Shown here: one piece after another, positions 1,421 through 22,227 of the stretch
Numbering within the stretch: position 1 is the first letter of the stretch
Layout of the letters: each line of letters starts with the position of its first letter
Assembly (NCBI RefSeq): GCF_009931435.1
Contig: NZ_CP043414.1
Reading direction: 5' to 3' (one strand)
From: Escherichia coli
Lineage (GTDB): Bacteria > Pseudomonadota > Gammaproteobacteria > Enterobacterales > Enterobacteriaceae
Length of the DNA stretch: 64,000 nt
The notes under the pieces: model-generated
What the model saw: only the letters and a program-made list of their open reading frames with translations
What the model was told of the DNA's origin: nothing
Database searches by the model: none
Position numbers and translations under genes: made by a program

Positions 1421-2852
1421 GCCGTTTCAGCGCCCGTTTTCGCTGGCAACCCGCCTGACCTTTTTTATCAGCCTTGCCACCATTGCAGCGTTTTTCGTCT
1501 TTGCCTGGATCATGATCCACTCGGTAAAAGTGCATTTTGCCGAGCAGGATATTAATGATTTAAAAGAGATTAGCGCCACATTCAAGCGCGTTCTTAATCA
1601 TCCCGAAGAGACACAAGCCCGACGCTTAATGACGCTGGAAGATATCGTCAGTGGTTATTCCAACGTGTTGATTTCTCTGGCAGATAGCCACGGTAAAACG
1701 GTGTATCACTCCCCCGGTGCGCCGGATATCCGCGAGTTTGCACGTGATGCCATACCCGATAAAGACGCTCGGAGCGGCGAGGTGTATCTCCTTTCCGGCC
1801 CGACAATGATGATGCCAGGCCACGGTCACGGGCATATGGAACACAGCAACTGGCGGATGATTAACTTGCCGGTTGGCCCGTTGGTGGACGGCAAACCGAT
1901 TTATACGCTCTACATCGCGCTGTCTATCGATTTTCATCTTCATTACATTAATGATTTGATGAATAAACTTATTATGACCGCATCGATCATCAGCATCCTG
2001 ATCGTCTTTATCGTGCTGCTGGCGGTACATAAAGGCCACGCGCCAATTCGCAGCGTCAGCCGTCAAATCCAGAACATTACCTCGAAAGATCTCGACGTTC
2101 GCCTCGATCCACAGACCGTGCCCATTGAACTCGAACAACTGGTGCTGTCGTTCAACCATATGATCGAGCGTATCGAGGATGTCTTTACCCGCCAGTCCAA
2201 TTTCTCAGCGGATATCGCCCACGAAATTCGCACGCCGATTACGAATCTTATAACGCAAACGGAAATCGCCCTCAGCCAGTCGCGCAGCCAGAAGGAGCTG
2301 GAAGATGTGCTCTACTCTAATCTCGAAGAGCTGACGCGAATGGCGAAAATGGTCAGCGATATGCTGTTTCTCGCTCAGGCCGATAACAACCAGTTAATCC
2401 CCGAAAAGAAAATGCTCAACCTGGCGGATGAAGTCGGCAAAGTGTTCGATTTTTTCGAGGCGTTAGCGGAAGATCGCGGCGTGGAGTTGCGGTTTGTTGG
2501 TGACGAGTGTCAGGTTGCGGGCGATCCGCTGATGTTGCGTCGGGCGTTAAGCAACCTGCTTTCTAACGCCCTGCGTTATACGCCGCCCGGAGAGGCAATT
2601 GTAGTGCGCTGCCAGACGGTCGATCACCAGGTGCAAGTTACCGTCGAAAACCCCGGTACGCCCATTGCGCCCGAGCATTTACCGCGTTTGTTTGACCGTT
2701 TCTACCGCGTTGATCCTTCCCGCCAGCGAAAAGGTGAAGGTAGCGGTATTGGGCTGGCGATAGTGAAATCGATTGTTGTCGCGCATAAAGGCACGGTTGC
2801 GGTAACGTCAGATGCGCGGGGAACAAGGTTTGTTATCATATTACCCGCTTAA
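1410..2852 (+). CDS. cusS: Copper/silver sensor histidine kinase CusS
   Basis: ORF track 1398..2852; ATG at 1410 (MASKPF...) overlaps the cusR stop; two TM segments, H-box and HATPase motifs. Confidence 0.9.
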
Positions 2853-3001
2853 TCCTTCAGCAATCGGCAACTTTTATAACCAGTGTAAAAATAACGTGCC
2901 GCAATAATCCTACCTATTAATGATAAAAAGCTGTCACAATTCATAAAAAACTTTAATATACGCCACCCTAAACATAACCAGCGTTAATGTAAGGTTTTTG
3001 T

Positions 3002-5239
3002 GTGGACTGGCTTCTTGATGTTTTTGCAACCTGGCTATATGGCTTAAAAGTAATCGCGATAACGTTAGCGGTCATCATGTTCATCAGCGGGCTGGACGAT
3101 TTTTTTATTGATGTCGTCTACTGGGTACGCCGCATTAAACGCAAGTTGAGTGTTTATCGCCGCTACCCGCGAATGAGTTACCGCGAACTGTATAAACCAG
3201 ATGAAAAACCGTTAGCGATTATGGTTCCGGCGTGGAATGAAACGGGCGTCATCGGCAATATGGCCGAGCTGGCGGCGACCACGCTCGACTATGAAAACTA
3301 TCATATCTTTGTTGGCACCTACCCCAACGACCCCGATACTCAGCGTGATGTTGACGAAGTGTGCGCTCGCTTCCCAAACGTGCATAAGGTAGTCTGCGCT
3401 CGTCCTGGCCCCACCAGCAAAGCCGACTGCCTGAACAACGTGCTGGACGCCATCACCCAGTTTGAGCGTAGCGCCAATTTCGCTTTTGCTGGTTTTATTC
3501 TGCATGACGCCGAAGACGTAATTTCACCGATGGAATTGCGTCTGTTCAACTATCTGGTCGAGCGTAAAGATCTGATTCAGATCCCGGTATACCCATTCGA
3601 ACGCGAATGGACGCACTTCACCAGCATGACTTACATTGATGAGTTTTCAGAACTGCATGGCAAAGATGTTCCGGTGCGTGAAGCCCTCGCCGGACAGGTG
3701 CCCAGCGCAGGCGTCGGTACTTGTTTCAGCCGCCGCGCCGTGACCGCACTGTTAGCTGACGGTGACGGTATTGCTTTCGACGTGCAGAGTCTTACTGAAG
3801 ATTACGACATTGGTTTCCGCCTGAAAGAAAAAGGTATGACGGAAATTTTTGTCCGTTTTCCGGTGGTGGACGAAGCCAAAGAACGCGAGCAGCGTAAATT
3901 TTTACAGCACGCGCGGACGTCAAACATGATCTGCGTGCGCGAATATTTCCCCGATACCTTTTCGACGGCGGTTCGACAAAAGTCTCGCTGGATCATCGGC
4001 ATTGTTTTCCAGGGCTTTAAAACCCATAAATGGACCTCCAGCCTGACACTCAACTACTTTCTCTGGCGCGACCGCAAAGGGGCAATCAGTAACTTTGTCA
4101 GCTTCCTCGCGATGCTGGTGATGATCCAGCTTTTGCTGTTACTGGCGTATGAAAGTTTGTGGCCCGATGCCTGGCATTTCCTTTCTATTTTCAGCGGCAG
4201 CACATGGTTAATGACCCTGCTGTGGCTAAACTTTGGTTTGATGGTTAACCGCATCGTGCAGCGGGTGATTTTTGTCACTGGCTACTACGGTCTGACGCAG
4301 GGGCTGCTATCTGTCCTGCGTCTTTTCTGGGGCAACCTGATTAACTTCATGGCCAACTGGCGCGCGTTAAAACAGGTGCTTCAACACGGCGATCCACGTC
4401 GCGTCGCGTGGGATAAAACAACGCATGACTTCCCCAGCGTCACTGGCGATACCCGCTCGTTGCGCCCGTTAGGTCAAATTCTGCTGGAAAATCAGGTCAT
4501 CACTGAAGAACAACTCGATACGGCACTGCGTAATCGTGTCGAAGGTCTACGCCTGGGCGGTTCAATGCTGATGCAGGGGCTGATTAGCGCCGAACAGCTG
4601 GCACAGGCACTGGCAGAGCAAAACGGCGTGGCGTGGGAGTCCATCGATGCCTGGCAGATCCCTTCTTCGCTGATTGCCGCGATGCCGGCCTCCGTGGCGC
4701 TGCATTATGCGGTGCTACCGCTGCGTCTGGAAAATGATGAGTTAATTGTCGGCAGTGAAGATGGTATTGACCCGGTTTCGCTGGCAGCCCTGACGCGTAA
4801 AGTTGGACGCAAAGTGCGTTACGTCATTGTTCTGCGAGGACAAATTGTCACCGGATTACGTCACTGGTATGCACGTCGACGCGGTCACGATCCACGGGCA
4901 ATGTTGTACAATGCGGTTCAGCATCAGTGGCTCACGGAACAACAGGCCGGTGAAATCTGGCGGCAATATGTGCCGCATCAGTTCCTGTTCGCCGAAATAC
5001 TGACCACGCTCGGTCATATTAATCGTTCAGCAATTAACGTGTTGTTATTGCGCCATGAACGCAGTTCTCTGCCGCTCGGCAAGTTTTTGGTCACCGAAGG
5101 CGTTATCAGCCAGGAAACGTTGGATCGCGTCCTGACAATTCAGCGCGAATTACAAGTTTCGATGCAATCACTATTACTCAAAGCAGGTTTAAACACAGAA
5201 CAGGTTGCGCAACTGGAGTCCGAAAATGAAGGAGAATAA
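3002..5239 (+). CDS. nfrB: Phage N4 adsorption protein B (inner membrane glycosyltransferase family)
   Basis: ORF track 745 aa, alternative (GTG) start; recognised as NfrB; K-12 gene order. Confidence 0.88.
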   Translation: MDWLLDVFATWLYGLKVIAITLAVIMFISGLDDFFIDVVYWVRRIKRKLSVYRRYPRMSYRELYKPDEKPLAIMVPAWNETGVIGNMAELAATTLDYENYHIFVGTYPNDPDTQRDVDEVCARFPNVHKVVCARPGPTSKADCLNNVLDAITQFERSANFAFAGFILHDAEDVISPMELRLFNYLVERKDLIQIPVYPFEREWTHFTSMTYIDEFSELHGKDVPVREALAGQVPSAGVGTCFSRRAVTALLADGDGIAFDVQSLTEDYDIGFRLKEKGMTEIFVRFPVVDEAKEREQRKFLQHARTSNMICVREYFPDTFSTAVRQKSRWIIGIVFQGFKTHKWTSSLTLNYFLWRDRKGAISNFVSFLAMLVMIQLLLLLAYESLWPDAWHFLSIFSGSTWLMTLLWLNFGLMVNRIVQRVIFVTGYYGLTQGLLSVLRLFWGNLINFMANWRALKQVLQHGDPRRVAWDKTTHDFPSVTGDTRSLRPLGQILLENQVITEEQLDTALRNRVEGLRLGGSMLMQGLISAEQLAQALAEQNGVAWESIDAWQIPSSLIAAMPASVALHYAVLPLRLENDELIVGSEDGIDPVSLAALTRKVGRKVRYVIVLRGQIVTGLRHWYARRRGHDPRAMLYNAVQHQWLTEQQAGEIWRQYVPHQFLFAEILTTLGHINRSAINVLLLRHERSSLPLGKFLVTEGVISQETLDRVLTIQRELQVSMQSLLLKAGLNTEQVAQLESENEGE

Positions 5240-8198
5240 CCTTAATCGCGTCATCGGATGGTCTGGTTTACTGCTGACGTCTTTATTGAGTACCAGCGCA
5301 CTCGCAGACAATATCGGCACCAGCGCAGAAGAGCTGGGGCTGAGCGATTATCGCCATTTTGTTATTTATCCCCGTCTCGATAAGGCGCTGAAGGCACAGA
5401 AAAATAACGACGAAGCAACCGCCATCCGCGAATTTGAATATATACACCAGCAGGTGCCGGATAATATTCCGCTGACTTTATACCTTGCGGAAGCCTATCG
5501 CCATTTTGGTCATGATGACCGGGCGCGGCTGTTGCTTGAGGATCAACTGAAACGTCACCCAGGAGATGCCCGACTTGAGCGCAGTCTGGCGGCTATTCCA
5601 GTTGAAGTGAAAAGCGTTACGACTGTTGAAGAACTGCTTGCCCAGCAAAAAGCGTGCGACGCTGCGCCGACCCTGCGTTGTCGCAGTGAAGTCGGGCAGA
5701 ATGCCCTGCGGCTGGCACAATTACCTGTCGCCAGAGCGCAACTGAACGATGCGACGTTTGCTGCATCGCCGGAAGGAAAAACGCTGCGAACCGATCTGCT
5801 GCAACGCGCAATCTACCTGAAACAATGGTCCCAGGCAGATACGCTATACAATGAAGCACGCCAGCAGAACACATTAAGCGCGGCAGAACGCCGTCAGTGG
5901 TTTGACGTGCTTCTTGCCGGGCAGCTGGATGATCGGATCCTGGCGCTGCAATCACAGGGGATCTTCACCGATCCGCAGTCATATATTACTTACGCGACCG
6001 CGCTGGCTTATCGTGGCGAGAAAGCACGCCTCCAGCATTATCTCATTGAAAATAAGCCGCTGTTTACCACGGACGCACAAGAGAAAAGTTGGCTCTATCT
6101 GTTATCTAAATACAGCGCCAACCCCGTTCAGGCGTTGGCGAATTATACGGTACAGTTTGCCGATAACCGCCAGTATGTTGTTGGCGCGACGCTACCGGTG
6201 CTGTTAAAAGAAGGTCAGTACGACGCAGCGCAAAAACTGCTCGCCACCCTCCCCGCCAATGAAATGCTTGAGGAGCGTTATACCGTCAGCGTGGCGACTC
6301 ATAACAAGGCTGAAGCTCTGCGTCTGGCACGATTGCTGTATCAGCAAGAACCGACAAATCTTACCCGCCTGGATCAACTGACCTGGCAACTGATGCAGAA
6401 CGAGCAGTCACGCGAAGCTGCCGATTTGTTGCTGCAACGCTATCCCTTCCAGGGCGATGCGCGCGTCAGCCAGACTTTAATGACGCGACTAGCGTCTCTG
6501 CTGGAAAGTCATCCTTACCTGGCAACTCCGGCGAAGGTGGCGATTTTATCGAAACCCTTACCGCTGGCGGAGCAACGTCAGTGGCAAAGTCAGTTGCCGG
6601 GTATTGCAGATAATTGCCCAGCAATCGTTCGCTTGCTGGGCGATATGTCGCCTTCCTACGATGCCGCCGCCTGGAACCGTCTGGCAAAGTGTTATCGGGA
6701 CACGCTACCCGGTGTGGCGTTGTATGCATGGCTTCAGGCCGAACAACGGCAACCGAACGCCTGGCAACATCGTGCGGTAGCCTATCAGGCGTATCAGGTT
6801 GAGGATTACGCCACCGCACTGGCGGCCTGGCAGAAAATCAGTCTTCACGACATGAGCAATGAGGATCTGCTTGCTGCTGCCAATACCGCCCAGGCGGCAG
6901 GAAATGGTGCGGCTCGCGATCGCTGGCTTCAGCAGGCAGAACAACGTGGGCTGGGAAACAATGCCCTCTACTGGTGGCTGCATGCGCAACGTTACATTCC
7001 TGGTCAGCCGGAACTCGCACTGAACGATCTCACGCGCTCAATCAATATTGCGCCTTCTGCCAACGCTTACGTTGCGCGGGCGACAATTTATCGCCAACGT
7101 CATAATGTCCCGGCGGCGGTGAGTGATTTGCGCGCCGCTCTGGAACTGGAACCGAATAATAGCAACACCCAGGCAGCGCTCGGTTACGCCTTGTGGGATA
7201 GCGGTGATATCGCACAGTCGCGGGAAATGCTCGAACAGGCGCATAAAGGGCTACCGGACGATCCGGCACTTATCCGACAACTGGCCTACGTGAACCAGCG
7301 TCTGGATGATATGCCTGCGACGCAGCACTACGCCCGTCTGGTGATTGATGACATTGATAATCAGGCGCTGATAACCCCACTGACCCCAGAGCAAAATCAG
7401 CAACGCTTCAATTTCCGCCGTCTGCATGAGGAGGTCGGTCGCCGCTGGACGTTCAGTTTCGATTCTTCTATCGGCTTGCGTTCCGGCGCAATGAGTACCG
7501 CTAACAATAATGTTGGCGGCGCAGCGCCAGGGAAAAGCTATCGTAGCTACGGGCAACTGGAAGCCGAGTACCGCATCGGACGCAATATGCTGCTGGAAGG
7601 CGACCTGCTCTCGGTTTACAGCCGTGTATTTGCCGATACCGGAGAAAACGGGGTGATGATGCCGGTGAAAAATCCGATGTCCGGCACCGGTCTGCGCTGG
7701 AAGCCGCTGCGCGATCAGATCTTTTTCCTCGCCGTCGAACAGCAATTGCCGCTGAACGGACAAAACGGCGCATCCGATACCATGCTGCGCGCCAGCGCCT
7801 CATTCTTTAATGGCGGCAAATACAGCGACGAATGGCACCCGAACGGTTCAGGCTGGTTTGCCCAAAACCTGTACCTCGATGCGGCGCAATATGTCCGCCA
7901 GGATATTCAGGCGTGGACGGCAGATTATCGCTTAAGCTGGCATCAGAAGGTGGCGAACGGACAGACTATTGAGCCTTACGCTCACGTTCAGGACAACGGT
8001 TATCGTGATAAAGGCACTCAGGGCGCGCAGCTTGGCGGTGTCGGGGTCCGCTGGAATATCTGGACCGGCGAGACGCACTACGACGCCTGGCCGCACAAAG
8101 TCAGTCTCGGCGTCGAATATCAACATACCTTTAAGGCGATTAATCAACGTAACGGAGAGCGCAACAACGCGTTTCTCACCATTGGAGTGCACTGGTAA
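5226..8198 (+). CDS. nfrA: Phage N4 receptor outer membrane protein NfrA (TPR-containing)
   Basis: ORF track 5205..8198; internal Met (MKENNL) gives 990 aa; signal peptide; overlaps nfrB end. Confidence 0.88.
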   Translation: MKENNLNRVIGWSGLLLTSLLSTSALADNIGTSAEELGLSDYRHFVIYPRLDKALKAQKNNDEATAIREFEYIHQQVPDNIPLTLYLAEAYRHFGHDDRARLLLEDQLKRHPGDARLERSLAAIPVEVKSVTTVEELLAQQKACDAAPTLRCRSEVGQNALRLAQLPVARAQLNDATFAASPEGKTLRTDLLQRAIYLKQWSQADTLYNEARQQNTLSAAERRQWFDVLLAGQLDDRILALQSQGIFTDPQSYITYATALAYRGEKARLQHYLIENKPLFTTDAQEKSWLYLLSKYSANPVQALANYTVQFADNRQYVVGATLPVLLKEGQYDAAQKLLATLPANEMLEERYTVSVATHNKAEALRLARLLYQQEPTNLTRLDQLTWQLMQNEQSREAADLLLQRYPFQGDARVSQTLMTRLASLLESHPYLATPAKVAILSKPLPLAEQRQWQSQLPGIADNCPAIVRLLGDMSPSYDAAAWNRLAKCYRDTLPGVALYAWLQAEQRQPNAWQHRAVAYQAYQVEDYATALAAWQKISLHDMSNEDLLAAANTAQAAGNGAARDRWLQQAEQRGLGNNALYWWLHAQRYIPGQPELALNDLTRSINIAPSANAYVARATIYRQRHNVPAAVSDLRAALELEPNNSNTQAALGYALWDSGDIAQSREMLEQAHKGLPDDPALIRQLAYVNQRLDDMPATQHYARLVIDDIDNQALITPLTPEQNQQRFNFRRLHEEVGRRWTFSFDSSIGLRSGAMSTANNNVGGAAPGKSYRSYGQLEAEYRIGRNMLLEGDLLSVYSRVFADTGENGVMMPVKNPMSGTGLRWKPLRDQIFFLAVEQQLPLNGQNGASDTMLRASASFFNGGKYSDEWHPNGSGWFAQNLYLDAAQYVRQDIQAWTADYRLSWHQKVANGQTIEPYAHVQDNGYRDKGTQGAQLGGVGVRWNIWTGETHYDAWPHKVSLGVEYQHTFKAINQRNGERNNAFLTIGVHW

Positions 8199-9089
8199 AT
8201 GCGTAAGTTCATTTTCGTATTGCTGACACTGCTTTTGGTCAGCCCTTTTTCCTTTGCGATGAAAGGTATTATCTGGCAACCACAAAACCGTGATAGTCAG
8301 GTTACCGATACCCAGTGGCAGGGGCTGATGAGTCAGTTACGTTTGCAAGGCTTCGATACCCTGGTTTTGCAATGGACCCGTTACGGCGATGCATTCACCC
8401 AGCCAGAACAGCGCGCGTTATTGTTTAAGCGTGCCGCAGCTGCGCAACAGGCTGGCCTGAAGCTGATTGTCGGGCTGAATGCCGATCCGGAATTTTTTAT
8501 GCACCAGAAACAGTCATCCGCGGCGCTGGAAAGCTATCTTAATCGCCTGCTGGCTGCCGATCTCCAGCAAGCCAGATTATGGAGCGCCGTACCTGGCGTA
8601 ACGCCGGATGGCTGGTACATCAGCGCGGAAATTGACGACCTGAACTGGCGCAGCGAAGCCGCCCGTCAGCCTTTGCTGACATGGTTAAACAACGCGCAGC
8701 GGTTGATTAGCGATGTTTCAGCAAAACCGGTTTATATCAGTAGTTTTTTCGCCGGAAACATGTCGCCCGATGGCTATCGCCAACTGCTGGAACACGTTAA
8801 AGCAACCGGCGTTAATGTCTGGGTACAGGATGGCAGCGGCGTGGATAAACTTACTGCTGAACAGCGTGAACGTTATCTACAGGCCAGCGCCGATTGCCAA
8901 AGCTCCGCCCCAGCAAGCGGCATTGTTTATGAACTGTTTGTCGCCGGCAAAGGCAAAACCTTTACAGCGAAACCGAAACCGGATGCAGAGATCGCCTCGC
9001 TGTTAGCGAAACGTTCCTCTTGTGGTAAAGACACGCTCTATTTCTCTCTGCGCTATTTGCCCGTCGCGCACGGCATTCTCGAGTATTAA
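8199..9089 (+). CDS. ybcH: Secreted protein YbcH
   Basis: ORF track 296 aa with signal peptide; immediately downstream of nfrA as in K-12. Confidence 0.75.
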   Translation: MRKFIFVLLTLLLVSPFSFAMKGIIWQPQNRDSQVTDTQWQGLMSQLRLQGFDTLVLQWTRYGDAFTQPEQRALLFKRAAAAQQAGLKLIVGLNADPEFFMHQKQSSAALESYLNRLLAADLQQARLWSAVPGVTPDGWYISAEIDDLNWRSEAARQPLLTWLNNAQRLISDVSAKPVYISSFFAGNMSPDGYRQLLEHVKATGVNVWVQDGSGVDKLTAEQRERYLQASADCQSSAPASGIVYELFVAGKGKTFTAKPKPDAEIASLLAKRSSCGKDTLYFSLRYLPVAHGILEY

Positions 9090-9271
9090 ATCTCCTCCAG
9101 GTAAGTCGGGTACGACCTGGCTTACCTCTTTCGCTCTCGTCAGAATTCCATCAAGATTAATTGCTAAAAAGCGTGCTAAAGAAAGAAGATCGTTATCGGC
9201 GAACGGGCCGATCACTCATGCAGGAAGCATAGATCCTTTGAGCGGAGTTTCTGATATCTGAGGAGTGCGAA

Positions 9272-10033
9272 ATGCAATTGAGCAGCAGTGAACCTTGCGT
9301 GGTGATCCTGACCGAAAAAGAGGTAGAGGTAAGCGTCAATAACCATGCCACGTTTACCCTTCCGAAAAATTACCTGGCCGCCTTCGCGTGCAACAATAAC
9401 GTCATTGAACTCTCAACGTTAAATCACGTATTAATCACCCACATCAACCGTAACATCATCAACGATTATCTGTTGTTTTTAAATAAGAACTTAACCTGTG
9501 TAAAGCCCTGGTCGCGGCTGGCTACCCCGGTTATCGCTTGTCATAGCCGTACACCGGAAGTGTTCCGGCTAGCCGCCAACCACAGCAAGCAGCAACCCAG
9601 CAAACCCTGCGAAGCGGAGTTGACGCGCGCATTGCTTTTTACCGTATTGTCTAACTTTCTTGAGCAATCGCGGTTTATTGCCCTACTGATGTATATCTTA
9701 CGCAGCAGCGTCCGCGACAGCGTCTGCCGCATTATTCAAAGCGATATTCAGCATTACTGGAATCTGCGAATTGTCGCCAGTTCGCTCTGTTTAAGCCCCA
9801 GCCTGCTCAAAAAGAAATTAAAAAACGAAAATACCAGCTATAGCCAGATTGTCACAGAGTGTCGTATGCGTTACGCCGTACAGATGTTATTGATGGATAA
9901 CAAAAATATCACTCAGGTGGCACAATTGTGTGGGTATAGCAGCACGTCGTACTTTATCTCTGTTTTTAAGGCGTTTTACGGCCTGACACCGTTGAATTAT
10001 CTCGCCAAACAGCGACAAAAAGTGATGTGGTGA
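9272..10033 (+). CDS. envY: AraC-family porin thermoregulator EnvY
   Basis: ORF track 253 aa; C-terminal AraC-type HTH; K-12 position next to ompT. Confidence 0.8.
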   Translation: MQLSSSEPCVVILTEKEVEVSVNNHATFTLPKNYLAAFACNNNVIELSTLNHVLITHINRNIINDYLLFLNKNLTCVKPWSRLATPVIACHSRTPEVFRLAANHSKQQPSKPCEAELTRALLFTVLSNFLEQSRFIALLMYILRSSVRDSVCRIIQSDIQHYWNLRIVASSLCLSPSLLKKKLKNENTSYSQIVTECRMRYAVQMLLMDNKNITQVAQLCGYSSTSYFISVFKAFYGLTPLNYLAKQRQKVMW

Positions 10034-10078
10034 AGGGCAAAGCGGAAACAGATAAGACTGGCATAAATGAAGAAGAAA

Positions 10079-10123
10079 TGGCGCGCCCTGCAGGATTCGA
10101 ACCTGCGGCCCACGACTTAGAAG
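10079..10123 (-). repeat. 45-bp copy of the 3' end of tRNA-Arg (prophage attachment-site repeat, distal end)
   Basis: Sequence tggcgcgccctgcaggattcgaacctgcggcccacgacttagaag identical to 58383..58427; diverges afterwards. Confidence 0.8.
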
Positions 10124-10546
10124 TTCCTAGAACGACATTTTAAGTCAACAACTTACCGCGCCATCTCTGCGCTCACACGTCCCACTACCTCAAAACATGT
10201 AAAGCCTTGCAAGCCATTGCGAGGCCTTATGTGTCTCAGTTTTGTCCCTCTTTTTTGTACTAAAAAACATAGTAATTGAGGATAAACCTCATGCTATTTT
10301 CGCTTATATGCCTCTAAAGGCATGGCACTTAAATAGATAAAAGCACCACAAAAGCATAAAAAAACCACACAGTAAAACCGAAATATGAAACAATAACAGA
10401 TAATTAAACCAAAAACAGATAGCGCATTGTGATAATCATTCAATACTAAACAAAATATAAACAGTGGAGCAATATGTAATTGACTCATTAAGTTAGATAT
10501 AAAAAATACATATTCAATCATTAAAACGATTGAATGGAGAACTTTT

Positions 10547-11500
10547 ATGCGGGCGAAACTTCTGGGAATAGTCCTGACAACCCCTATTGCGATCAGCTCT
10601 TTTGCTTCTACCGAGACTTTATCGTTTACTCCTGACAACATAAATGCGGACATTAGTCTTGGAACTCTGAGCGGAAAAACAAAAGAGCGTGTTTATCTAG
10701 CCGAAGAAGGAGGCCGAAAAGTCAGTCAACTCGACTGGAAATTCAATAACGCTGCAATTATTAAAGGTGCAATTAATTGGGATTTGATGCCCCAGATATC
10801 TATCGGGGCTGCTGGCTGGACAACTCTCGGCAGCCGAGGTGGCAATATGGTCGATCAGGACTGGATGGATTCCAGTAACCCCGGAACCTGGACGGATGAA
10901 AGTAGACACCCTGATACACAACTCAATTATGCCAACGAATTTGATCTGAATATCAAAGGCTGGCTCCTCAACGAACCCAATTACCGCCTGGGACTCATGG
11001 CCGGATATCAGGAAAGCCGTTATAGCTTTACAGCCAGAGGTGGTTCCTATATCTACAGTTCTGAGGAGGGATTCAGAGATGATATCGGCTCCTTCCCGAA
11101 TGGAGAAAGAGCAATCGGCTACAAACAACGTTTTAAAATGCCCTACATTGGCTTGACTGGAAGTTATCGTTATGAAGATTTTGAACTCGGTGGCACATTT
11201 AAATACAGCGGCTGGGTGGAATCATCTGATAACGATGAACACTATGACCCGGGAAAAAGAATCACTTATCGCAGTAAGGTCAAAGACCAAAATTACTATT
11301 CTGTTGCAGTCAATGCAGGTTATTACGTCACACCTAACGCAAAAGTTTATGTTGAAGGCGCATGGAATCGGGTTACGAATAAAAAAGGTAATACTTCACT
11401 TTATGATCACAATAATAACACTTCAGACTACAGCAAAAATGGAGCAGGTATAGAAAACTATAACTTCATCACTACTGCTGGTCTTAAGTACACATTTTAA
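10547..11500 (+). CDS. ompT: Outer membrane protease OmpT (omptin)
   Basis: ORF track 317 aa; signal peptide; recognised omptin sequence; AT-rich flanks. Confidence 0.9.
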   Translation: MRAKLLGIVLTTPIAISSFASTETLSFTPDNINADISLGTLSGKTKERVYLAEEGGRKVSQLDWKFNNAAIIKGAINWDLMPQISIGAAGWTTLGSRGGNMVDQDWMDSSNPGTWTDESRHPDTQLNYANEFDLNIKGWLLNEPNYRLGLMAGYQESRYSFTARGGSYIYSSEEGFRDDIGSFPNGERAIGYKQRFKMPYIGLTGSYRYEDFELGGTFKYSGWVESSDNDEHYDPGKRITYRSKVKDQNYYSVAVNAGYYVTPNAKVYVEGAWNRVTNKKGNTSLYDHNNNTSDYSKNGAGIENYNFITTAGLKYTF

Positions 11501-11749
11501 GAACGCCAACTAAAATTTCCCCGAGGTGAAAATCGCCCCGGGGAATAACTAGCCATTTCAATGTAACAATTAACCCTTAAAATAAACCCAGAAGGTTATT
11601 AACTAAATCACATAGAAAACCATCAATTATAGTATGTATAAAATAGGCGACAGCAACCCAATTACAAATTAATGGTTCCAGAATATCACATCAAAAAAAA
11701 CGCTGTATAATATTATAATTAACATGTAGACAACTTGTAATAAACATTA

Positions 11750-12499
11750 TCAGTCAATTGTTTTGTTTATTCCATCTGTGACGCCGATTATTTTCTCAAA
11801 ATAATGAGATGGCGTGACACCATAATAATCTTTAAATGCACATATGAAATATGAAGTACTGTTATAGCCACATTTCTGGGCTACGACATTGATAGAATAA
11901 GAGTTTGAAGTTATGAGTTTTTTTGCATACCTCATCCTAGTATCTCTCAATATTTCAGTAAATGACGTTCCTTCATCCCTTAATCTTTTTTTTATTAAAC
12001 TTTCACTCGTATAAATCAATTCCGCAATATCTTTTAAATGCCATTGCCGCTCAATATTAAAACTGATTATTCCAGTAATTTTACAGGTAAATGTATTTAT
12101 ATTTGTTAGTATAAATGAATTTACACTTTCGCGTTTTTTGAACATGGCAAGTAAGGATATACATAGTCTTTCTTTTAACCAAAGGGAGTGTGAGTCTGCT
12201 ATTTTAATCCCTTCAAACAGAGAAAAAACAAGCGATAATGGAGGTTCCTCTTCAGCAATATAGCCATTCTTATCAAGAGTAAATTTGCCAGGCAGCTCAT
12301 TATTCACGTCGATAAAAAAGGATAAACATGTTTTCTTATCTATATCAACAATTCTTAGTTTAGAGGGGCATACTGGTAACTCCCTTCTAATTTTGTCGCT
12401 TACAATAAACAATGAATTTTTTTTGAACGAGATAACTCTCCTGTTTATAATTAAATCAAATGATTGACAGATGAAAACTACGGAGCAAACATAATCCAT
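11750..12499 (-). CDS. appY: AraC-family transcriptional activator AppY
   Basis: ORF track 249 aa; C-terminal AraC HTH; low-GC gene. Confidence 0.82.
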
Positions 12500-13119
12500 C
12501 TTGCACCTATCATAAAATTAAAACAAGTTGATAGTAGTCAAATAACAACCAATTAAATACACAATCATAATCAGGATGATGTGCATTTATATTTTTATAC
12601 ACAAAATTATAGTTTGCAAATTTTAATAAATTTCATTTAAGATTAAATTATTATATGTATGTTGTTTTTTATTCTAACTTATTTCAAAGTTACATTTTTC
12701 AACGCTTACTATGCTTTTTATTAACATAAACTCACTACAACGCACCTGAAACCTCTTGCTATATATATGTCAACCGTTTGAATTTAAAATAAAAAGAGTA
12801 TCATTTTTACTTGCATTTCTTATCAAGTCACATTCAACAACAGTAAAAAAACATTATTAGAACCATTCAATTAACAAAAAACCAACATCCAGCTTGCTTA
12901 ATTTTTCTTTATTAAACGATATTGAAAATCAATTGATAAAATACATCTAAACAACCTTTTGGGGCGCAAAAGCATAACATCAAACAAACAAATAACACAC
13001 CGAAAAAACTCACAATTAATAACCTATGATATACATACTGTTTATTATGGTTGAATAAGCCACTCGATATCTGGTGCTACGGAAGTGTCCACACGGTTTA
13101 GCAGCACCCGATACTTTTT

Positions 13120-13305
13120 TCAGGCTTCCAGCAACGATCTTTCTTCCTCCGTTGCGATTTCCAGATCTACAGCATCCTGCAGTGGCGCAATATACTCACT
13201 GAATTCCTGGATGTAGAACTGTGTAGTGACGGTCTTCCAGCCATTCGGCTCCTGCTGTATTGAAGCATACCAGGCTATTTCAATATCGCTATGCTGCGGC
13301 AGCAT
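13120..13305 (-). pseudogene. tfaX: Tail fibre assembly protein remnant (C-terminal fragment, tfaX-like)
   Basis: 61-aa ORF shares the motif [23 protein letters not shown] with Tfa at 14095..14679; about 130-bp DNA direct repeat. Confidence 0.6.
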
Positions 13306-13443
13306 TTAACCCCTTGTAATTCATTGCCATAATTGATTTAATTCACAAATAAAACTATAACATGGTGAAATTAATAAAAAAACACAGATGATGGGGCTAG
13401 AATTTACACACCACTTACCCTAAAGCTTTATGACTGGTGGGTT

Positions 13444-14040
13444 TTGGGAGTATCAAATCGGCTTGCATGGGGATGTCCTACAAAGGAACACCTTCTTCCA
13501 CACCTTCTTCCACACTTTCTGGAACATTTAGGTAACAACCATCTGGATATTGGTGTTGGAACTGGGTTTTACCTTACTCACGTACCTGAGAGTAGTCTGA
13601 TATCTTTAATGGATTTGAACGAAGCTAGCCTGAACGCGGCATCTACAAGGGCTGGGGAATCAAAAATTAAACATAAAATTAGCCATGATGTTTTTGAACC
13701 TTATCCCGCGGCGTTACATGGTCAATTTGATTCCATTTCCATGTCTTACCTTCTTCACTGCCTGCCTGGAAATATATCTACAAAAAGCTGTGTAATACGC
13801 AATGCGGCGCAGGCCTTAACTGACGATGGAACTCTATACGGAGCCACAATTCTTGGCGATGGAGTTGTGCACAATAGCTTCGGTCAAAAACTGATGCGCA
13901 TTTACAATCAGAAAGGCATCTTTTCAAACACAAAAGATTCCGAAGAAGGCTTAACACATATACTCTCAGAGCATTTCGAGAATGTTAAAACCAAGGTTCA
14001 AGGTACTGTAGTAATGTTTTCCGCTTCAGGAAAAAAATAG
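13444..14040 (+). CDS. ybcY: Putative SAM-dependent methyltransferase-like protein (YbcY-like)
   Basis: ORF track 198 aa; glycine-rich motif LDIGVGTG resembling methyltransferase motif I; lies between tfa and the tfa remnant. Confidence 0.55.
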   Translation: MGVSNRLAWGCPTKEHLLPHLLPHFLEHLGNNHLDIGVGTGFYLTHVPESSLISLMDLNEASLNAASTRAGESKIKHKISHDVFEPYPAALHGQFDSISMSYLLHCLPGNISTKSCVIRNAAQALTDDGTLYGATILGDGVVHNSFGQKLMRIYNQKGIFSNTKDSEEGLTHILSEHFENVKTKVQGTVVMFSASGKK

Positions 14041-14094
14041 CATCCAACCGCAGCATGTTCTTGCTTAAGACGTGCTGCGGCATAATCCCAATGA

Positions 14095-14679
14095 TTACTC
14101 CCTGACAGGGTTCGTAGGCCACTCAATATCAGGTGCAGTTGATGTATCAACACGGTTCAGCAACACCCGATATTTTTTCCAGGCTTCCAGCAATGAGGTT
14201 TCTTCCTCCGTTGCGATTTCCAGATCTACAGCATCCTGAAGTGGCGCAATATGCTCACTGGCTACCTGCATCAGGCTGTTTTTTGTTTCTTCCGCCTCCC
14301 GAATCCGGAACAGTTTTTCTGCTTCTGCATCTTTCACCCAGGCTGTACCGTTCCACTTCTGAAACTCCCCTTCCGGCGATAACCAGGTAACATTTTCCGG
14401 TAACGGACCGAGTTCAGAAATAAATAACGCGTCCCCTGACGCTACGTCATAAACCGTTTTACCCCGATGATCTTCAACGAGATGCCACGATGACTCATCA
14501 CTGTTGAAAACAGCCACGAAGCCAGCTGGAATATCTGGCGGTGCAATGTCGGTACTGTTTGCTGGCAGACCTGTATGAGGCGGAATATATGCGTCACCTT
14601 CACCAATAAATTCATTAGTTCCGGCCAGCAGATTATAAATTGTTATGGTCCGTGGTTGTTCACTCATTCTGAATGCCAT
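14095..14679 (-). CDS. tfa: Tail fibre assembly protein Tfa
   Basis: ORF track 194 aa; start overlaps the stf stop by 1 nt; lambda Tfa-like. Confidence 0.85.
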
Positions 14680-17600
14680 TATGCAAGCCTCACAATATAG
14701 TTAAATGCGATGTTTTTGACGGTGTTTTCCGCGTTACCAGCAGCGTTAACGGTGATGGTGTGTCCATGTGAGCCAATCGCAACCGAGTGCGTATGAGCAC
14801 CAATACCGACAGTATGTGCGTGTGCACCTGCGCTTGCTGCAGTGCCGGACAGTGAGTGGGTATGAGCACCATCTGATGATGTCTTCCCTGCATTACGAGT
14901 CTGGCCACTACCGCTTGTTGTGCTCATAATCCCCGCGCTTGGATTTGAAATCGCGGTATAACCATTAGGGAAAATGCTCGTGTTCGTGCCACCAAATGCA
15001 CCGGAACTCTTGTGTTGGTGCGCACCGGCACTATTTGCGGTCCCGCTAATACTATGGGTATGCGCCCCGGTGTTATTCGTGGATTTGGTTCCGTAATCAA
15101 ACGACGATGTGGTTTTCGTCCCCAAATCCGTACTGGATGCGCTGGCGCTGTGGGTATGCGATTTAATGCCGTCCTGTTCCTGAGACAATACGGCCCGACC
15201 ACTGGCAGGTTTGCCCTTAATCGTCCAGCCACGCATATCAGGGATCACGCCTGACGGATAAGCCGCTGCAAGTTTCGGGTAGGCAGATTTGTCAAAAGCC
15301 TGCCCCTGCATCAGGGCATAGCCAGACGGAACGGTATCTGATGGCCACGGGATTGGTGCGCCGACTGGGTAGCTTTCTGGTGGAAGATTTTTCGAGGTAT
15401 AAACTTCTGCCCAGTCTTCCTCAAAACCATAGCCATCTCTTGAGGAACGGTAGAACAGACCTCCATTTCTGTAATGCGCCTTCATCTGCAGGGTCCGGCA
15501 ACTTCCGACTCCGGTATAGAAGTTAACCAGAATATAGCTGTCGCCAGAGCGGGTGACATTGTAAGCGCCTGATTCGGCATTCCAGGGAACGCCACCATCC
15601 GCATCGGCATATGTATCCGTTGCCCTTCTGGCAAAAGCAGCCACATGCGCGGCGGTTAAAGTAATATCTTTGGAACCATCAAACTCAACACCAGAAACCA
15701 GTCTTGGCGTTTGCAGCTTTGTTGCTGTTAATGCATTACCGTTCAGACTTGCGGACAGTTTGGTTCCAATAATCAGTTCGCCGGTTGCGTTATCAATAGC
15801 AAACGGTCTTAATGTATTCCAGCCACCATAAACATCACCTTGATTGGTAAGCAGCAGGTAAGTTTTAGCGCCATCATTACGCCATAATGCACCATACTCC
15901 CCACCTATCATTCGAATCTGATTACCACCACGCGCTACAATTTCGTCTGTGGCAAAAAGTTTTTTGCACGACAAGTTATCGTTAACGATTAACGAATGAG
16001 ACTCATAAAAACCACGCCCACTCTTAAAATCAAGGATAACGTCCGCCGCGATACATTCAGTCGCCGGATTTGTTGCCCCAAACTTATAGGTCGTATCATT
16101 AACAACGAGATCAGCACCAGGTGCGGATATTGACAGGCCATCTTCGATAAACGCAAAAACAGGGAAAGCAGCGCCATCAACATAGAACACAGAGCGCAAA
16201 TCATCGCCCTTATTACTCATCATTATTGAGTGGATGGCTCGTTCATTGTTTTGATATTGCCAGAACATTCCATAAGCATAACGCCCCCTGTCAGTCCAGC
16301 CACCAGGCATAACAAATCCGTTAAACTCGCAGTTATTCATCGGATCGCCTGCGGTTCGCGTTGCCGTGGTGATAATGACCCTTGATGCCAGTTCGCTTAC
16401 TGAGCCAGCAGAACGCATAACAACAACAGGGTAATATTTTCCAGATGTTGCACCTGCAGGAGCGTTAACCCGCACATAACGCATACCACGCTTATCAGCA
16501 AAGTCTGTTTTACTGACCGCGTTAATGTTGTTCAGGAAGCGTCCCTTATCGGGTATATCAGCGCCGTTCTGGTCTTTCTGCAGACGTTTCTCTGCATTGT
16601 CATAGGCTGATTTTACTGCCTTTGGCGTTGCCGCCAGCGTTTCAGACGTACTGTTGGTCGCACTGCTGAGCTGTACTACCCCCTTTTTCGTCGTGCTCGC
16701 ATCCTCAAGCGCCACGGCGGATGCAATATCCTCTGCCCGTTTTGCCGCTGTCTCGGCGCGCGTTGCCGCGGATTCCGCCGTACTTTTGCTCTGAGCTGCC
16801 GCCGTCGCACTGCCAGCTGCCTCTGTCGCCTTCGTGGATGCCGTCGTGGCGCTGCTCTTCGCTGCTGACGCTTGTCTGGTCGCCTCATCTTTTGAAGCAG
16901 ACGCAGATGATGCCGATGACGCCGCCGAACTGGCTGACGATGCGGCAGCCGTTTTTGAGGATTCTGCGCTGGTTTCCGACGCTTTCGCGTTCGTTTCGGA
17001 TGTCTTCGCTGCGGAAGCAGAACTCGCTGCTGCGCTGGCCTGTTCAGTGGCTTCGCCAGCCTTCGTTGTGGCTGTTGAAGCAGACGATGCGGCACTTTCT
17101 GCCGACTTTCCGGCAGCGGTGGCACTGGCTGAGGCCTGCCCGGCACTTGTTGACGCGGCGCTGGCAGATGATGCAGCCGCTGTTTTTGAGTCTGCTGCTG
17201 CGGAGGCACTCTGTTCCGCTGCCGTCTCAGAAGACTTAGCGTTCGTCTCGGACGTTTTTGCCGCCTTCGCGGAATTTCCTGCCGCCGTTGCCGAGGAAGC
17301 TGCGCTACTGGCGCTCGAGGATGCGTTCGTTTCTGATGATTTCGCTGCCTCTTTTGAGGCCGCCGCATCCCTGGCTGAGGTGGCAGCTTCTGACGCTTTC
17401 CTGGTCGCGGTGGATGCAGAAGTGGCTGCTGATTGTTGTGACGCTGCGGCATTCGTTTCTGACGTTTTCGCCGCACCGGCACTGGTGGCCGCCGCGCTTT
17501 TTGAGGACTCTGCAGCGGCAGCACTTTTTTCCGCTTCAGTGGCCTTTGCTGATGCCGTTCCTGCGCTGGAAGATGCTGACTGAGCCGACGACGCGGCCTG

Positions 17601-18086
17601 TCCGGCTGACGTGCTGGCTGCGCGTGCTGAGCCTGCAGCATCAGTCGCATGGGTTGCCGCCTCACTGGCAGATGTGCTGGCATCGCCGGCTGACTTCTTC
17701 GCGGCTGCCGTGTTTTGTGCCACCGCGGACGCGTTACGCGCCACCTCTTCCACCATCAGTTCAAAACGGCGCAGAGCCTCCGGACGGGCATCATCCTCCG
17801 TCATGGCACCGAGAAAATCATTCAGCGTACCGGGTCGGGAATCTTCATACACGGTGATGGTCCCGGCATGTGACGGCGGGAATCCTTCCACCAACAGAAT
17901 AACGCTGTACTGACCGTACTCAACGTCCATGCTGTAACGCCCGGCTTCATCCGGATTTTCTGAGGCCAGCGTGTTCACCACCACCGCGGTGCTGTTACGT
18001 TTTGCTTTCAGCTGGATTGTGCAGTTCTGTACCGGTTTTCCTGTGCCGTCTTTCAGTACACCTGAAATCTTTACTGCCATATTCAC
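14679..18086 (-). CDS. stf: Side tail fibre protein Stf with Ala/Ser/Thr-rich repeat region and His-rich C-terminal repeats
   Basis: ORF track 1135 aa; N-terminus and C-terminal GAHTHS/GAHAHT repeats match lambda Stf by recall; central region differs. Confidence 0.85.
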
Positions 18087-18144
18087 CCCACAAAAAAGCC
18101 CGCCTGAACAGGCGGGCTGTCATAACACTGTGTTACCTGGCTAA

Positions 18145-18744
18145 TCAGAACTTATAACCGACACCCACGATGAAACCGTCAGTGCGCCAGTCGCCACTGC
18201 CGGAGCCTTCATAAGCAATATCAATGGCCACGGATTCGGTCGGGTTAAACTACACGCCAGCTCCCCACGCCAGAGACGTGTTGCTGTGGCGACCGTCATC
18301 ACTTCCGGTCAGCACGTCGTGCGTTTTCCCCTTGTTGTCAGTTACGCGGAGATAATCCCCGGAGAAAGTCGACACACGGCTGTAAGCCATACCCGCCATC
18401 GCATACGCGCTGAACCATTCATTCACGCGCACAGACGGCCCCACCATCACGCTGAACCAGCGGTTACGCACGGAATCTTCATGCCAGCGGGTATTGCTGT
18501 AACGGGTAAGCTGGCGATTCTTGTCTCCTGCATAGCTGAATGACGTCACCAGCCCCAGTGTGTCCGTAAACTCATAACGGTATTTCACGTTAATCCCGTT
18601 AAGATCATCGCTGCCGGGAACGTTCGTCGAGGCATGAAGATACCCCGCGCTCAGCGTGGACTGATGTTCAGATGCCCATGCAGGCGCACCGGATACGGTC
18701 AGACAAATGGCTGCGGACAAAATGGCGGCATAAAGTTTACGCAT
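18145..18744 (-). pseudogene. lom: Lom-family (Ail/Lom) outer membrane protein gene interrupted by an in-frame amber codon
   Basis: ORF track 18250..18744 (164 aa) ends at TAG; the same frame continues 35 codons to a beta-barrel-type C-terminus ...GVGYKF then TGA. Confidence 0.7.
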
Positions 18745-18813
18745 AATTACCTCTCGCTTTTCTGCAATAAAAAAGGCACCATTTCTGGTGCCCTTATATG
18801 GGTTATAACAATT

Positions 18814-21800
18814 TCAACGAATACTGATGCCGGAAGCGGCTTTTTTGGTCACAATCACCGTACAGTCGGTGATATTACCTGCCCACTGATTGCCTTTATG
18901 GAAAACCTTAAACTCCAGAGTGACGCTTCCCCTGCCACTCGGCATATCAATAACCGCACTGTAGCTACCGGGAATGGCCCCTTTAGTTTCTCTGGATGCG
19001 ATTAATACACCGTTTTTGCGAACTTCAAAACCATAACCCGTGTATCTTGTACCTCCCGGGTTATTACCACTTCCCGGATCGCTATACGCTATTCCGTTAA
19101 AGATAATGGGCGGAATAATGATTTGACGGTCAAAGTTATGATCATCGCTGATGGTGACTGTAACCGTCCCGTTTGGTGTTTCCGTGTTACCCCACGTACC
19201 AGCCTGTTTCGGAAATGATTTGGATACAGCTTTAACGAAGTCACCTCTGACCTGAGTCGCCTCCAGCATGCCCTTAATTGTACAGTTTTCATTTACCGTG
19301 ACATTGTTGAGCGTCCCGGCGTTCGCATTCACACTGCCACTGATATCCGCATTTTTAGCGGTCAGCTTTCCGTCTGATGTCAGGGAAAATACCGGTGGAT
19401 TTCCACCGCTGGTAATGGTGGGGGCCGTCAGGCGCTTCAGGAACACGTCGTTCATGAATATCTGGTTGCCCTGCGCCACAAACATCGGCGTTTCATTCCC
19501 GTTTGCCGGGTCAATAAACGCGATACGATTGGCGGCAACCAGAAACTGGCTCAGCTTGCCTTCCTCCGTGTCCTCCATGCTGAGGCCAATACCCGCGACA
19601 TAATGTTTGCCGTCTTTGGTCTGCTCAATTTTGACGCCCCACATCGCATTCCATTTATCGTTAGCGTCCTTCCACTCTTTCGAAAACTCATCCAGTCTGC
19701 TGGCGTTATCCTCCGTCAGATCAACTTTTTCCAGCAGCTCTTTACCGAGATGGGATTCGGTTATCTTGCCTTTGAAAAAATCCAGGTAACCTTCCGCATC
19801 ATCGCTCGCCCGACCAACAGCCTCCACGAATGCCGATTTGCCAACGGTGTTCACACTGCGAACGTAAAAATAATAATCATGGCCCGGTTTGATATTGATA
19901 CTGGCGGCTATCCAGTACAGTGCCGTACCAAGATAACGCGCGCTGGTTTCAACCTGCCTGATATCCGCAATCCGTTTTTCCGAGAACCAGAACTCAAACT
20001 GTACCGTCGGGTCATAAACCGCAAGATGCGGCGTGGCGGTTATCTGAAAATAGCCCGGCGTCAGCTCAATCCGCGACGGCGCTGCCGGTGCGGCAATCCG
20101 GAACGATACCGACGCCGGATCGCCCTGCTGTCCCCACGCATTTACCGCCCGGACTGTCAGCGTGTACCGTCCCAGCGCCAGTTGCGTGAAGCGGTATGTG
20201 GTTTCCGTCGTCCGGGCCGTGCTGACCAGCCGCTCACTGCCGTCATCCGCTGTTACGGTCAGACGGAGCAGGAAGCTCACGCCCTTCACCACCTTCGGCG
20301 TGTCCCAGCGCGCCAGCACCTGATATTCCCCGCTGTCTGCGGTGACTTCGGCAGTCAGGTGCTGCACCGCTGGCGGCGTGACACCATTCACCGTGCCGCT
20401 CTGGTCGCCGTCAAAGTGCGCCCCGTTATCCACGATGGCTTCTTTTTCCGGTACATGCTGCACGGCGGTGATGGCATACGTGCCGTCGTCGTTCTCACGG
20501 ATACTCACGCAGCGGAACAGGCGCTGGCGCAGCGTCGGCAGCTTCAGCCCCCACACGCTGTATTCAGCAACGCCGTCAGGAACACGGCTCACTTTCACCT
20601 TCACGCCGTCGGTGACGGACTGAACCTCCACGCTGACCGGATTGCCACTTCCGTCAACCAGGCTTATCAGCGTGGTACCGGAGGATGGCAGCGTGATTTC
20701 ACGGTCGAGCGTCAGCGTCCGGGTCTGGCTGTTTACCGCCAGCACGCGCCCGCCGGTGCTGATACCGGCATAGTCATCATCACAGATTTCAATGACATCG
20801 CCCGGCACATGGCGAAGCCCTTCTGCGCCCACGCTGAAGTCCACGGTCTGCGTTTCCAGCAGTTCTGTTTTAATCAGCCATAGCCCGGCGCGATGTGCCT
20901 GCCCCCGGCTGGTACAGCCAAAGGCATCCATCTTCGTGACGTTACGACCGTAACGGGCAATGGCCTGCGTGTCCTCCACAAGCTCTGTCGCCGTCTCCCA
21001 GCCGTTATTCGGGTCAATCCAGTTCACCTCAACGGCATTATGGCGGTCCTTCAGGGCGCTGAAGCTGTAGCGGAACGGCGCGCCATCATCCGGCATCACC
21101 ACATTACTGCGGTTATAGGTCCACACCTTATCCGATGGTCGGTCCTGCACGAACGTCAGCGTCTGCCCGTTCCATACCGGCATACAGCGCATCGCCGAGC
21201 AGAAATCACTGAGCACATCCCACGCCTTGCGCTGTGTGGTCAGGTACGCATTACAGGTGATGCGCGGCTCCGTGCCGCCAAAGCCGTCCGGCACTGACTG
21301 GTCGCAGTACTGGCCGATGACATACAGCGCCCATTTATCCACATCCGCCGCACCAAGACGTTTCCCCATGCCGTAGCGCGGATGGGTCAGCATATCCCAC
21401 AGACACCAGGCCATGTTGTTGCTGTATGCCGGTTTAAACGTTCCGTCCCAGATACCGCTGTATTGCCGCGTCTGCGGGTTATAGTTCGACGGCACCTGCA
21501 GAATGCGCCCGCGCAGATGATAATTACGGCTCACCTGCTGGCTGCCGAACTGCTCCGAATCCACCTGCACGCCGACCAGTGCCGTGTTCGGGTAGCCCTG
21601 TTTCACATCGATGATTTCGGTGTATGACGACCAGAGCGTTTTGTTCTGCAGCTGGTCTGTGGTGCTGTCCGGCGTCATCCTGCGCATCCGGATATTGAAC
21701 GGGCGCGGCGGCAGGTTACCCACCACCACCGAGGCCAGATACTGCGAGGTGGTTTTGCCCTTAATGGTGATGTCTTTTTCCGTCACCCAGCCACCATTAC

Positions 21801-22227
21801 GCTGGATCTGAACCAGCAGGCGGACTTCCGACGGATTCCTGTCCCCCTTTGAGGTGGTTTCCACCAGTGCCTGCACGCCGAAGGTAAAACGCAGTCGGTC
21901 AATGTTTGCCGACGTGATGGTCCGGGTGATCGGCGTGTCGTATTTCACTTCCGTACCCAGCACCGTCTCGGAGCCGGAGGATTCAAATCCCTCCGGCGGT
22001 GTCTGCTCCTGCTCACCGGCCCGGAACACCACCGTGACGCCGGAGATATTGGTATTCCCCTCACTGTCCAGCACTGGCGTACTGTTCAGCAGCACGCTTT
22101 TTAATCCATCCACCGGACCTTCAACCGGCCCTTCGCTGATGGCATCGATCACACTCAGCAACTGCGTGGACTTCAGGTTGTCCTTCGCTTCGCGCGGAGT
22201 ATGCCCCTTACTGCTGCCTTTACCCAT
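18814..22227 (-). CDS. J: Tail tip host specificity protein J
   Basis: ORF track 1137 aa; lambda gpJ-like; follows tail assembly genes. Confidence 0.93.

Follow-up and report, generated by a model that had tools for sequence, protein, structure and literature searches.

The window examined here, a 64,000 nt stretch of Escherichia coli DNA (contig NZ_CP043414.1 of RefSeq assembly GCF_009931435.1), carries on its complementary strand an open reading frame (ORF) of 1135 aa, 14679..18086, that opens with a GTG codon and encodes a side tail fibre, Stf. This identity had been proposed in an earlier note made from the sequence alone, and was borne out by the match of the N terminus to PF08400 (E 3e-71), together with the tail fibre assembly gene tfa directly downstream and J and lom upstream. 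The order J-lom-stf-tfa, established from ORFs and Pfam matches, is the same in phage lambda, the Rac prophage and phages 2H10 and ev099. The start codon of tfa overlaps the stop codon of stf, and its product shares 94% identity with lambda Tfa and 95% with TfaR.

An ATG at 18080 lies two codons (6 nt) inside the ORF, with a GGGG 5 nt upstream of it, and the equivalent ATG is where lambda Stf begins, as do the E. coli homologues as annotated (MAVKISG...). Given the homologue annotation, the lambda N terminus and the position of the GGGG, the GTG at 18086 was rejected as the start in favour of this ATG, and the protein is most likely 1133 aa in length; residues are nevertheless numbered throughout according to the 1135 aa form, although the shorter one is preferred. 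No family covering the whole protein was found in NCBIfam. The coordinates of all features are collected in Table 1.

A side tail fibre of the StfR type

By homology, there is nothing unusual about the gene: its kind, that of StfR (b1372, NP_415890.2), annotated as a putative side tail fibre of the Rac prophage in K-12, is both known already and very common. The two proteins are 95% identical and collinear throughout, and agree in domain order, in the 15 heptads that lambda Stf lacks and in the central cassette; 1075 of 1133 positions are identical, and a single block (aa 1024-1070), the flanks of which are near-identical, has been replaced. This block comprises 47 aa here and 34 aa in K-12 StfR, making the protein 13 aa longer as counted from the ATG. 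The chromosomal site also differs, being argU here and Rac in K-12, and whilst the pin invertase gene lies downstream of stfR in Rac, and phage 2H10 also has an invertase gene, there is none downstream of tfa in the window. As StfR was already known, collinear identity of 95% over the full length removes any claim to novelty.

Of the 5426 complete E. coli genomes over which all genome counts were taken, 5174 match some part of the gene and 1230 at least 80% of it, the best identity to any being 98.6%. The exact 1133 aa protein is present in NCBI on 24 contigs, and the cluster to which it belongs at 90% identity has 15,543 members. The gene is also carried by cultured lambdoid phages, with 94-100% of its length covered at 97-98% nucleotide identity in ev099, mEp332, 2H10, Kati and PhiR34_1. 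In ev099 and mEp332 the match is unbroken, including the tip described below, such that these have the same allele; 2H10, Kati and PhiR34_1 are close variants in which the match is split in two, consistent with a different tip. The central cassette of 2H10 is 99.8% identical to that of the window. In the literature searched, StfR is mentioned only incidentally, in an assay of recombination between lambda and Rac and in a statistic on low-complexity regions.

Within the 90% cluster, NCBI records give some proteins the name 'short-chain fatty acid transporter', others that of 'phage tail tape measure protein' or 'terminase large subunit'. These names look like annotation errors, probably originating from the low-complexity repeats or from fused or misassembled contigs.

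For comparison with lambda, the Stf of Ur-lambda was rebuilt from orf-401 and orf-314 of lambda PaPa, giving a protein of 774 aa, and aligned globally. The gene occupies the same position in lambda, after J and lom, and the window protein is the longer of the two, as the earlier note had stated. The domain-wise alignment to lambda Stf and T4 gp37 recommended there recovered lambda-like ends and a gp37-type C terminus: outside the inserted or replaced blocks, identity to lambda Stf ranges from 83.5 to 91.5% by segment, and full-length collinear identity, the outcome that the note had set against its own reading, was not seen. A non-lambda middle region also exists, but its limits are aa 494-904 rather than the suggested 480-860, and a second difference had been overlooked, namely 105 aa within the repeats that have no lambda counterpart. 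Homology stops just past the motif TPKAVK (aa 493) and resumes at GAPIPWPSD (aa 905), at the start of the collar domain PF07484; between these motifs, the limits being read directly from the alignment, lambda Stf has a hinge and distal shaft of 144 aa where the window protein carries a cassette of 411 aa. Lambda Stf additionally has one more SFDYGTK repeat and one more HxH unit.

The N-terminal anchor scores 238 bits against the prophage tail fibre N-terminal domain PF08400 (cut-off 26.6) and matches residues 1-94 of lambda Stf in PDB 9e7m/9mgh with an E value of 1e-50. In Ur-lambda, 12 copies of the StfN domain (residues 1-91) form a collar at the junction of gpV and gpM, and it is for Ur-lambda only that assembly into the virion and faster adsorption by the side fibres have been demonstrated (PMC12617516).

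The heptad repeats and their spurious reading frames

The Ala/Ser/Thr-rich repeats first noticed in this protein are real, these three residues making up 72-82% of every 50 aa window between aa 151 and 450. Self-identity is approximately 0.40 at all lags that are multiples of seven, against 0.216 +/- 0.011 in shuffled sequences, and a single register with the consensus S-A-(S/T)-x-A-x-(S/T) is observed directly from aa 118 to 465, an unbroken run of about 50 heptads. Alanine occupies the fifth position in 47 of 51 cases and the second in 35 of 52, and therefore both core positions hold small residues. In the AlphaFold2 (AF2) model of the monomer, aa 100-303 and 313-478 are helical. This region would correspond to a proximal coiled coil, the trimeric state of which we infer from its similarity to Ur-lambda Stf. 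In the latter, residues 102-393 have been modelled as a proximal trimeric coiled coil fitted to cryo-electron tomography density, beyond which come a hinge (residues 394-422) and a distal part with a gp37-like receptor-binding domain at its end (PMC12617516).

The 105 aa stretch absent from lambda Stf (aa 310-414) amounts to exactly 15 heptads and is present in K-12 StfR; its absence from lambda is evident both from the global alignment and from two overlapping tblastn high-scoring segment pairs onto lambda orf-401. These heptads would lengthen the arm by around 15 nm relative to that of lambda. At the DNA level, the spacings of direct repeats are mostly multiples of 21 nt and the copies are 60-88% identical, while Tandem Repeats Finder, run over the gene, detected no array, returning only one trifling 25 nt repeat. 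A recent tandem array was ruled out: the repeats are old and diverged.

The GC content of the repeat DNA is 62%, in comparison with 49% in the rest of the gene, and 67% of second codon positions are C and only 1% T. Stop codons are depleted: the sense +1 frame has none and two antisense frames have two and one, respectively, where 9.2 per frame would be expected from base composition. It is because of this depletion that long ORFs are open in other frames, four of which, ranging from 172 to 335 aa, are listed in Table 1. As had been supposed from the sequence, these are spurious, being by-products of composition. Similar cases exist in public records. The lambda record annotates a false antisense ORF, orf206b, within the stf repeats (lambda locus 5148-5768), and that of ev099 (LR597635.1, locus 1443-4908) has three antisense hypothetical proteins inside the stf repeats; in the same record the fibre gene is split into two coding sequences (CDSs), with the N-terminal half omitted.

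Central cassette and probable receptor-binding module

The coil is followed by a conserved fibre junction motif belonging to the family PF03406, and aa 442-523, which enclose this motif, match residues 90-172 of Mu gpS (PDB 8ju3/5yvq). Both break points of the cassette fall at motifs common to many fibres. Downstream, the cassette consists of a compact globular domain, referred to here as module A, a domain like the C-terminal trimerisation domain of T4 gp34 and a domain like part of Mu gpS. The second of these scores 95.7 bits against PF21446 (cut-off 27), the family of the gp34 trimerisation domain, and matches PDB entries 4uxe, 5nxf, 5nxh and 9x3r at E values of around 1e-10 to 3e-11. The third, which is preceded by a widely repeated fibre motif (aa 775-815), also overlaps a match to gp37_C (PF12604, 27.1 bits), and the starts and ends of matches cluster at its limits. 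With the C-terminal region of T4 gp34 and with Mu S only single domains are held in common; the order and neighbours of these differ, and the distal end of Mu S is not present here.

Module A matched no Pfam family and no PDB relative in sequence or profile searches, and showed no significant sequence or fold similarity to any characterised lectin, carbohydrate-binding module or hydrolase. Structure prediction of the central region, which had been proposed as a check, gave a confident, compact, beta-rich model of this domain, with a predicted local distance difference test score of 81 and a predicted template modelling score of 0.77 from a 20-sequence alignment, yet brought to light no known fold relative. 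Residues N584, C586, E615, H619 and S620 are invariant across relatives that are only 32-40% identical. In a library of viral models the domain matches tail fibres only, these being of enterobacterial, Vibrio, Aeromonas and uncultured phages, and it recurs within the tail fibres of lambdoid, P2-like, T4-like, T5-like and rV5-like phages. Thirty representatives contain a complete module A, and in 23 it is internal, followed by 150 residues or more. In the remaining seven there are fewer than 150 aa downstream: six of them are short, near-identical, fragment-like sequences, and the seventh, P0165 (419 aa, 56% identical, with 13 aa downstream of the module), could not be classified. Relatives join module A to other N-terminal anchors (PF12571) and to other distal ends (Peptidase_S74, PF25670). 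Because module A is mostly internal and is combined with differing anchors and distal ends, the cassette is read as a probable exchanged stretch of shaft, which would replace the hinge and distal shaft of lambda.

By contrast, the C-terminal 230 aa, common to lambda and T4 gp37, are by homology the receptor-binding module. Residues 904-1135 match the tip of T4 gp37 (PDB 2xgf, E 1e-82), with the collar, the HxH-bearing stem and the conserved C terminus of a gp37-type tip all present, though PF03335 scores just under its cut-off (18.9 against 20). The layout of collar, stem and tip is that of gp37 residues 785-1026, and the final 30 residues are nearly identical. The remainder of gp37 is not in common, and the tip subdomain is 43 aa long here and 28 aa in T4, the two being unrelated in sequence. 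The folding helpers of T4 are gp38 and gp57A; unlike in T4, a lambda-type Tfa is encoded beside the fibre gene. The GAHTHS, GAHAHT and GSHGHT repeats originally noticed are all found among seven HxH motifs (aa 977, 1009, 1023, 1075, 1089, 1098 and 1107), which align one-to-one and in register with those of gp37, H1023 corresponding to gp37 H929. Along the length of the gp37 needle seven iron ions are coordinated (PMC6957217), and by analogy the HxH histidines here may also bind metal, as the earlier note considered likely.

In gp37 the stem is formed by residues 882-931 and 960-1009, and the intervening tip subdomain (932-959) is the distal pole, which probably holds the sites for lipopolysaccharide and OmpC (PMC6957217). 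The equivalent subdomain of the window protein, aa 1026-1068, is the only block in which it differs from K-12 StfR and the only poorly conserved C-terminal block in comparison with lambda. Allelic variation at this site is directly observed in the genome set, the window type of tip being found in 995 of the genomes and the K-12 type in 412. It is here that a receptor would most likely be contacted.

Taken together, we regard it as highly probable that the gene encodes a side (lateral) tail fibre of the StfR type, belonging to a lambda-like prophage at the argU tRNA site and having the tip as its likely point of receptor contact. If the window copy is expressed, three chains would form one fibre, with aa 3-96 anchoring it in a collar around the tail tip. 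The approximately 50 uninterrupted heptads, with alanine at both core positions, would build a long coiled-coil arm, some 15 nm or 15 heptads longer than that of lambda, to be ended by the conserved junction motif. The 411 aa cassette, with its globular beta, gp34-like and Mu gpS-like domains, would take the place of the lambda hinge and distal shaft and lengthen the distal arm. Beyond it, the C-terminal 230 aa would fold into a T4 gp37-type collar and a stem stapled by metal at seven HxH motifs, the chain running out to the small tip and then back, with the neighbouring Tfa assisting the folding. In the manner of lambda Stf, this fibre would then accelerate reversible adsorption to whichever surface molecule the tip may bind, ahead of receptor binding by the central fibre J.

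Prophage setting and alternative readings

The fibre belongs to a lambdoid prophage of about 45 kb. On the left (positions 1-12900, within the first 14 kb), the flanking DNA aligns with the part of the E. coli chromosome that carries cusS, nfrB, nfrA, ybcH and ompT; other ORFs in this flank we take, by their size and the K-12 map, to be cusR, envY and appY. An arginine tRNA gene and an adjacent integrase-sized ORF lie at the other side, within 57204-64000 (Table 1). K-12 presumably retains only a defective remnant, DLP12, at this chromosomal site, and what occupies it in the window has the appearance of a lambdoid prophage of full length. Among the 5426 genomes, the best identity to the chromosomal flank (1-14100) is 98.0%; considering this alongside the 98.6% found for stf, the host seems to represent a lineage outside the set. 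Damaged sequence as the source of this divergence of around 2% from all complete E. coli genomes was rejected, since long ORFs remain unbroken and NCBI contains the identical protein.

Immediately upstream of stf, the copy of lom is a nonsense-truncated pseudogene that has lost its last 34 residues. Past the in-frame TAG, its frame runs on to ...AIDIAYEGSGSGDWRTDGFIVGVGYKF, matching the C terminus of lambda Lom. Two strong terminator-like hairpins bracket lom, an arrangement that would fit a separately expressed insert, or 'moron', and stf needing read-through of the first hairpin. Downstream of tfa lie a 61 aa ORF that repeats the C-terminal part of Tfa and an intact ORF resembling S-adenosylmethionine (SAM)-dependent methyltransferases, which by position we assume to resemble K-12 tfaX and ybcY, respectively. 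A 426 aa ORF antisense to J is probably another false ORF of compositional origin.

Table 1. Features of the stf locus and its surroundings in the window, with residues numbered according to the 1135 aa form of Stf
Feature	Position	Strand	Residues	Remarks
stf, CDS of the StfR-type side tail fibre	14679..18080	-	1133 aa	ATG at 18080
StfN anchor domain	17799..18080	-	3-96	joins fibre to tail; PF08400, E 3e-71; 91.5% identical to lambda Stf
Segment of Stf			97-309	85.9% identical to lambda Stf
Unbroken heptad region, about 50 heptads	16692..17735	-	118-465	GC-rich DNA carrying spurious ORFs
105 aa stretch, 15 heptads	16845..17159	-	310-414	in K-12 StfR; no counterpart in lambda Stf
Segment of Stf			415-493	83.5% identical to lambda Stf
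Conserved fibre junction motif	16575..16685	-	468-504	PF03406 Phage_fiber_2, E 2e-19
Segment of Stf (central cassette)			494-904	unrelated to lambda; 411 aa here, 144 aa in lambda
Module A, compact beta-rich globular domain	15987..16484	-	~535-700	
T4 gp34-like trimerisation/shaft domain	15750..15965	-	708-779	PF21446 (Pfam match aa 665-764)
Mu gpS-like domain	15360..15644	-	815-909	PDB 8ju3 residues 322-415, domain E 2.5e-20
Segment of Stf			905-1025	89.1% identical to lambda Stf
Collar domain	15219..15362	-	909-956	PF07484, E 1.5e-11, 44.5 bits; 2xgf alignment
gp37-type stem ('needle') with seven HxH motifs, enclosing the tip	14682..15209	-	960-1135	2xgf, E 1e-82
Tip subdomain	14883..15011	-	1026-1068	maps to gp37 residues 932-959; 27% identical to lambda Stf
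Segment of Stf			1069-1135	88.1% identical to lambda Stf
tfa, tail fibre assembly chaperone	14095..14679	-		PF02413, E 3e-45
Other-frame ORF in repeat DNA	16676..17683	-	335 aa	
Other-frame ORF in repeat DNA	16834..17583	+	249 aa	
Other-frame ORF in repeat DNA	17258..17857	+	199 aa	
Other-frame ORF in repeat DNA	16721..17239	+	172 aa	
ORF repeating C-terminal part of Tfa	13120-13305	-	61 aa	downstream of tfa
SAM-methyltransferase-like ORF	13444-14040	+	198 aa	intact; PF08242 and related families
Terminator-like hairpin	18097-18118	-		9-bp stem (7 GC pairs) and T run; ends 11 nt before stf ATG
lom	18145-18744	-		in-frame TAG at codon 165 (18250-18252)
Terminator-like hairpin	18772-18795	-		strong; between J and lom
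ORF antisense to J (18814-22227)	19603-20883	+	426 aa	DNA 60-66% GC
tRNA-Arg(tct)	58383-58459			beside integrase-sized ORF 57204-58367

The earlier note had taken the non-lambda middle, at about aa 480-860, for an exchanged receptor-binding region, which would then set the host range. This region is indeed the largest difference from lambda Stf, at 411 against 144 aa of unrelated sequence, it contains a globular domain of unassigned role, and its sub-modules are found in the fibres of many unrelated phages. Yet it is followed by an entire gp37-type collar, stem and tip, it stands in for the hinge and distal shaft of lambda rather than for the lambda receptor-binding domain, and module A occupies an internal position in 23 of 30 relatives and is found joined to several different distal tips. 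Moreover the region is 99-100% conserved relative to K-12 StfR, and it is the tip that differs. We therefore consider an exchange of receptor-binding specificity through the middle region very improbable. A different proposal would give the fibre dual specificity, module A being a second, lateral domain with a binding or enzymatic role, directed for instance at O-antigen or some other surface glycan, rather than a passive bead on the shaft. The confident compact fold and the five invariant residues, retained at such low identity, would suit this, as would the conservation of the module among fibres from the T4-like, T5-like, rV5-like and other groups of phages; contact with glycans is also plausible for this class of fibre, the side fibres of Ur-lambda having been reported to help against unmodified O16 O-antigen (PMC11990801). 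We think it unlikely that module A functions in this way.

It might also be that stf is an inert relic of a decaying prophage, giving rise to no functional fibre in this strain, as the K-12 orthologue is located in the defective Rac prophage, the lom gene of the window has a premature TAG and, going by the flanking genes and the K-12 map, K-12 has only the defective remnant DLP12 at this site. The intact frame of 1133 codons counts for little against this, as other frames of the same DNA are open too, but identical protein entries exist on 24 other contigs, tfa is intact, ORFs of tail-gene size are present as a full set in the window, together with the integrase-sized one, and the same allele is carried by plaque-forming phages; such decay appears decidedly unlikely. 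Several observations nonetheless weigh against the StfR-type fibre with a receptor-contacting tip that we favour. The AF2 model of the coiled coil, computed as were all the structure models for a monomer where a trimer is expected, folds back on itself; this hairpin is likely an artefact of modelling a single chain, and the shape of the model was not used. Module A, in which Cys, His, Glu and Ser residues are invariant and for which no fold relative is known, could have a binding or catalytic role of its own. The premature stop in lom possibly signals some decay of the element. No experiments on StfR-type fibres or their receptor were found in the searchable literature. Finally, OmpC is used both by lambda Stf (PMC12617516) and by T4 gp37 (PMC6957217), but as the window tip is only 27% identical to that of lambda and differs from that of T4, OmpC binding is not transferable to it.

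The fibre has little value as a discovery, since both the gene and its close relatives have been documented before, as has its mosaic character. Only module A retains some novelty, as a fibre domain that is widespread and has neither a family entry nor a solved structure; that this undescribed domain family might provide a second lateral receptor-binding or catalytic site, and hence dual specificity, is conceivable but improbable. The repeats also call for caution in annotation, false ORFs having entered public records from such DNA and proteins of the cluster having been misnamed. Of more practical use are the natural splice points of the protein, after TPKAVK (aa 493), before GAPIPWPSD (aa 905) and around the tip cassette (aa 1026-1068), which would be useful in constructing chimeric lambda side fibres for the retargeting of phage-based delivery vehicles.

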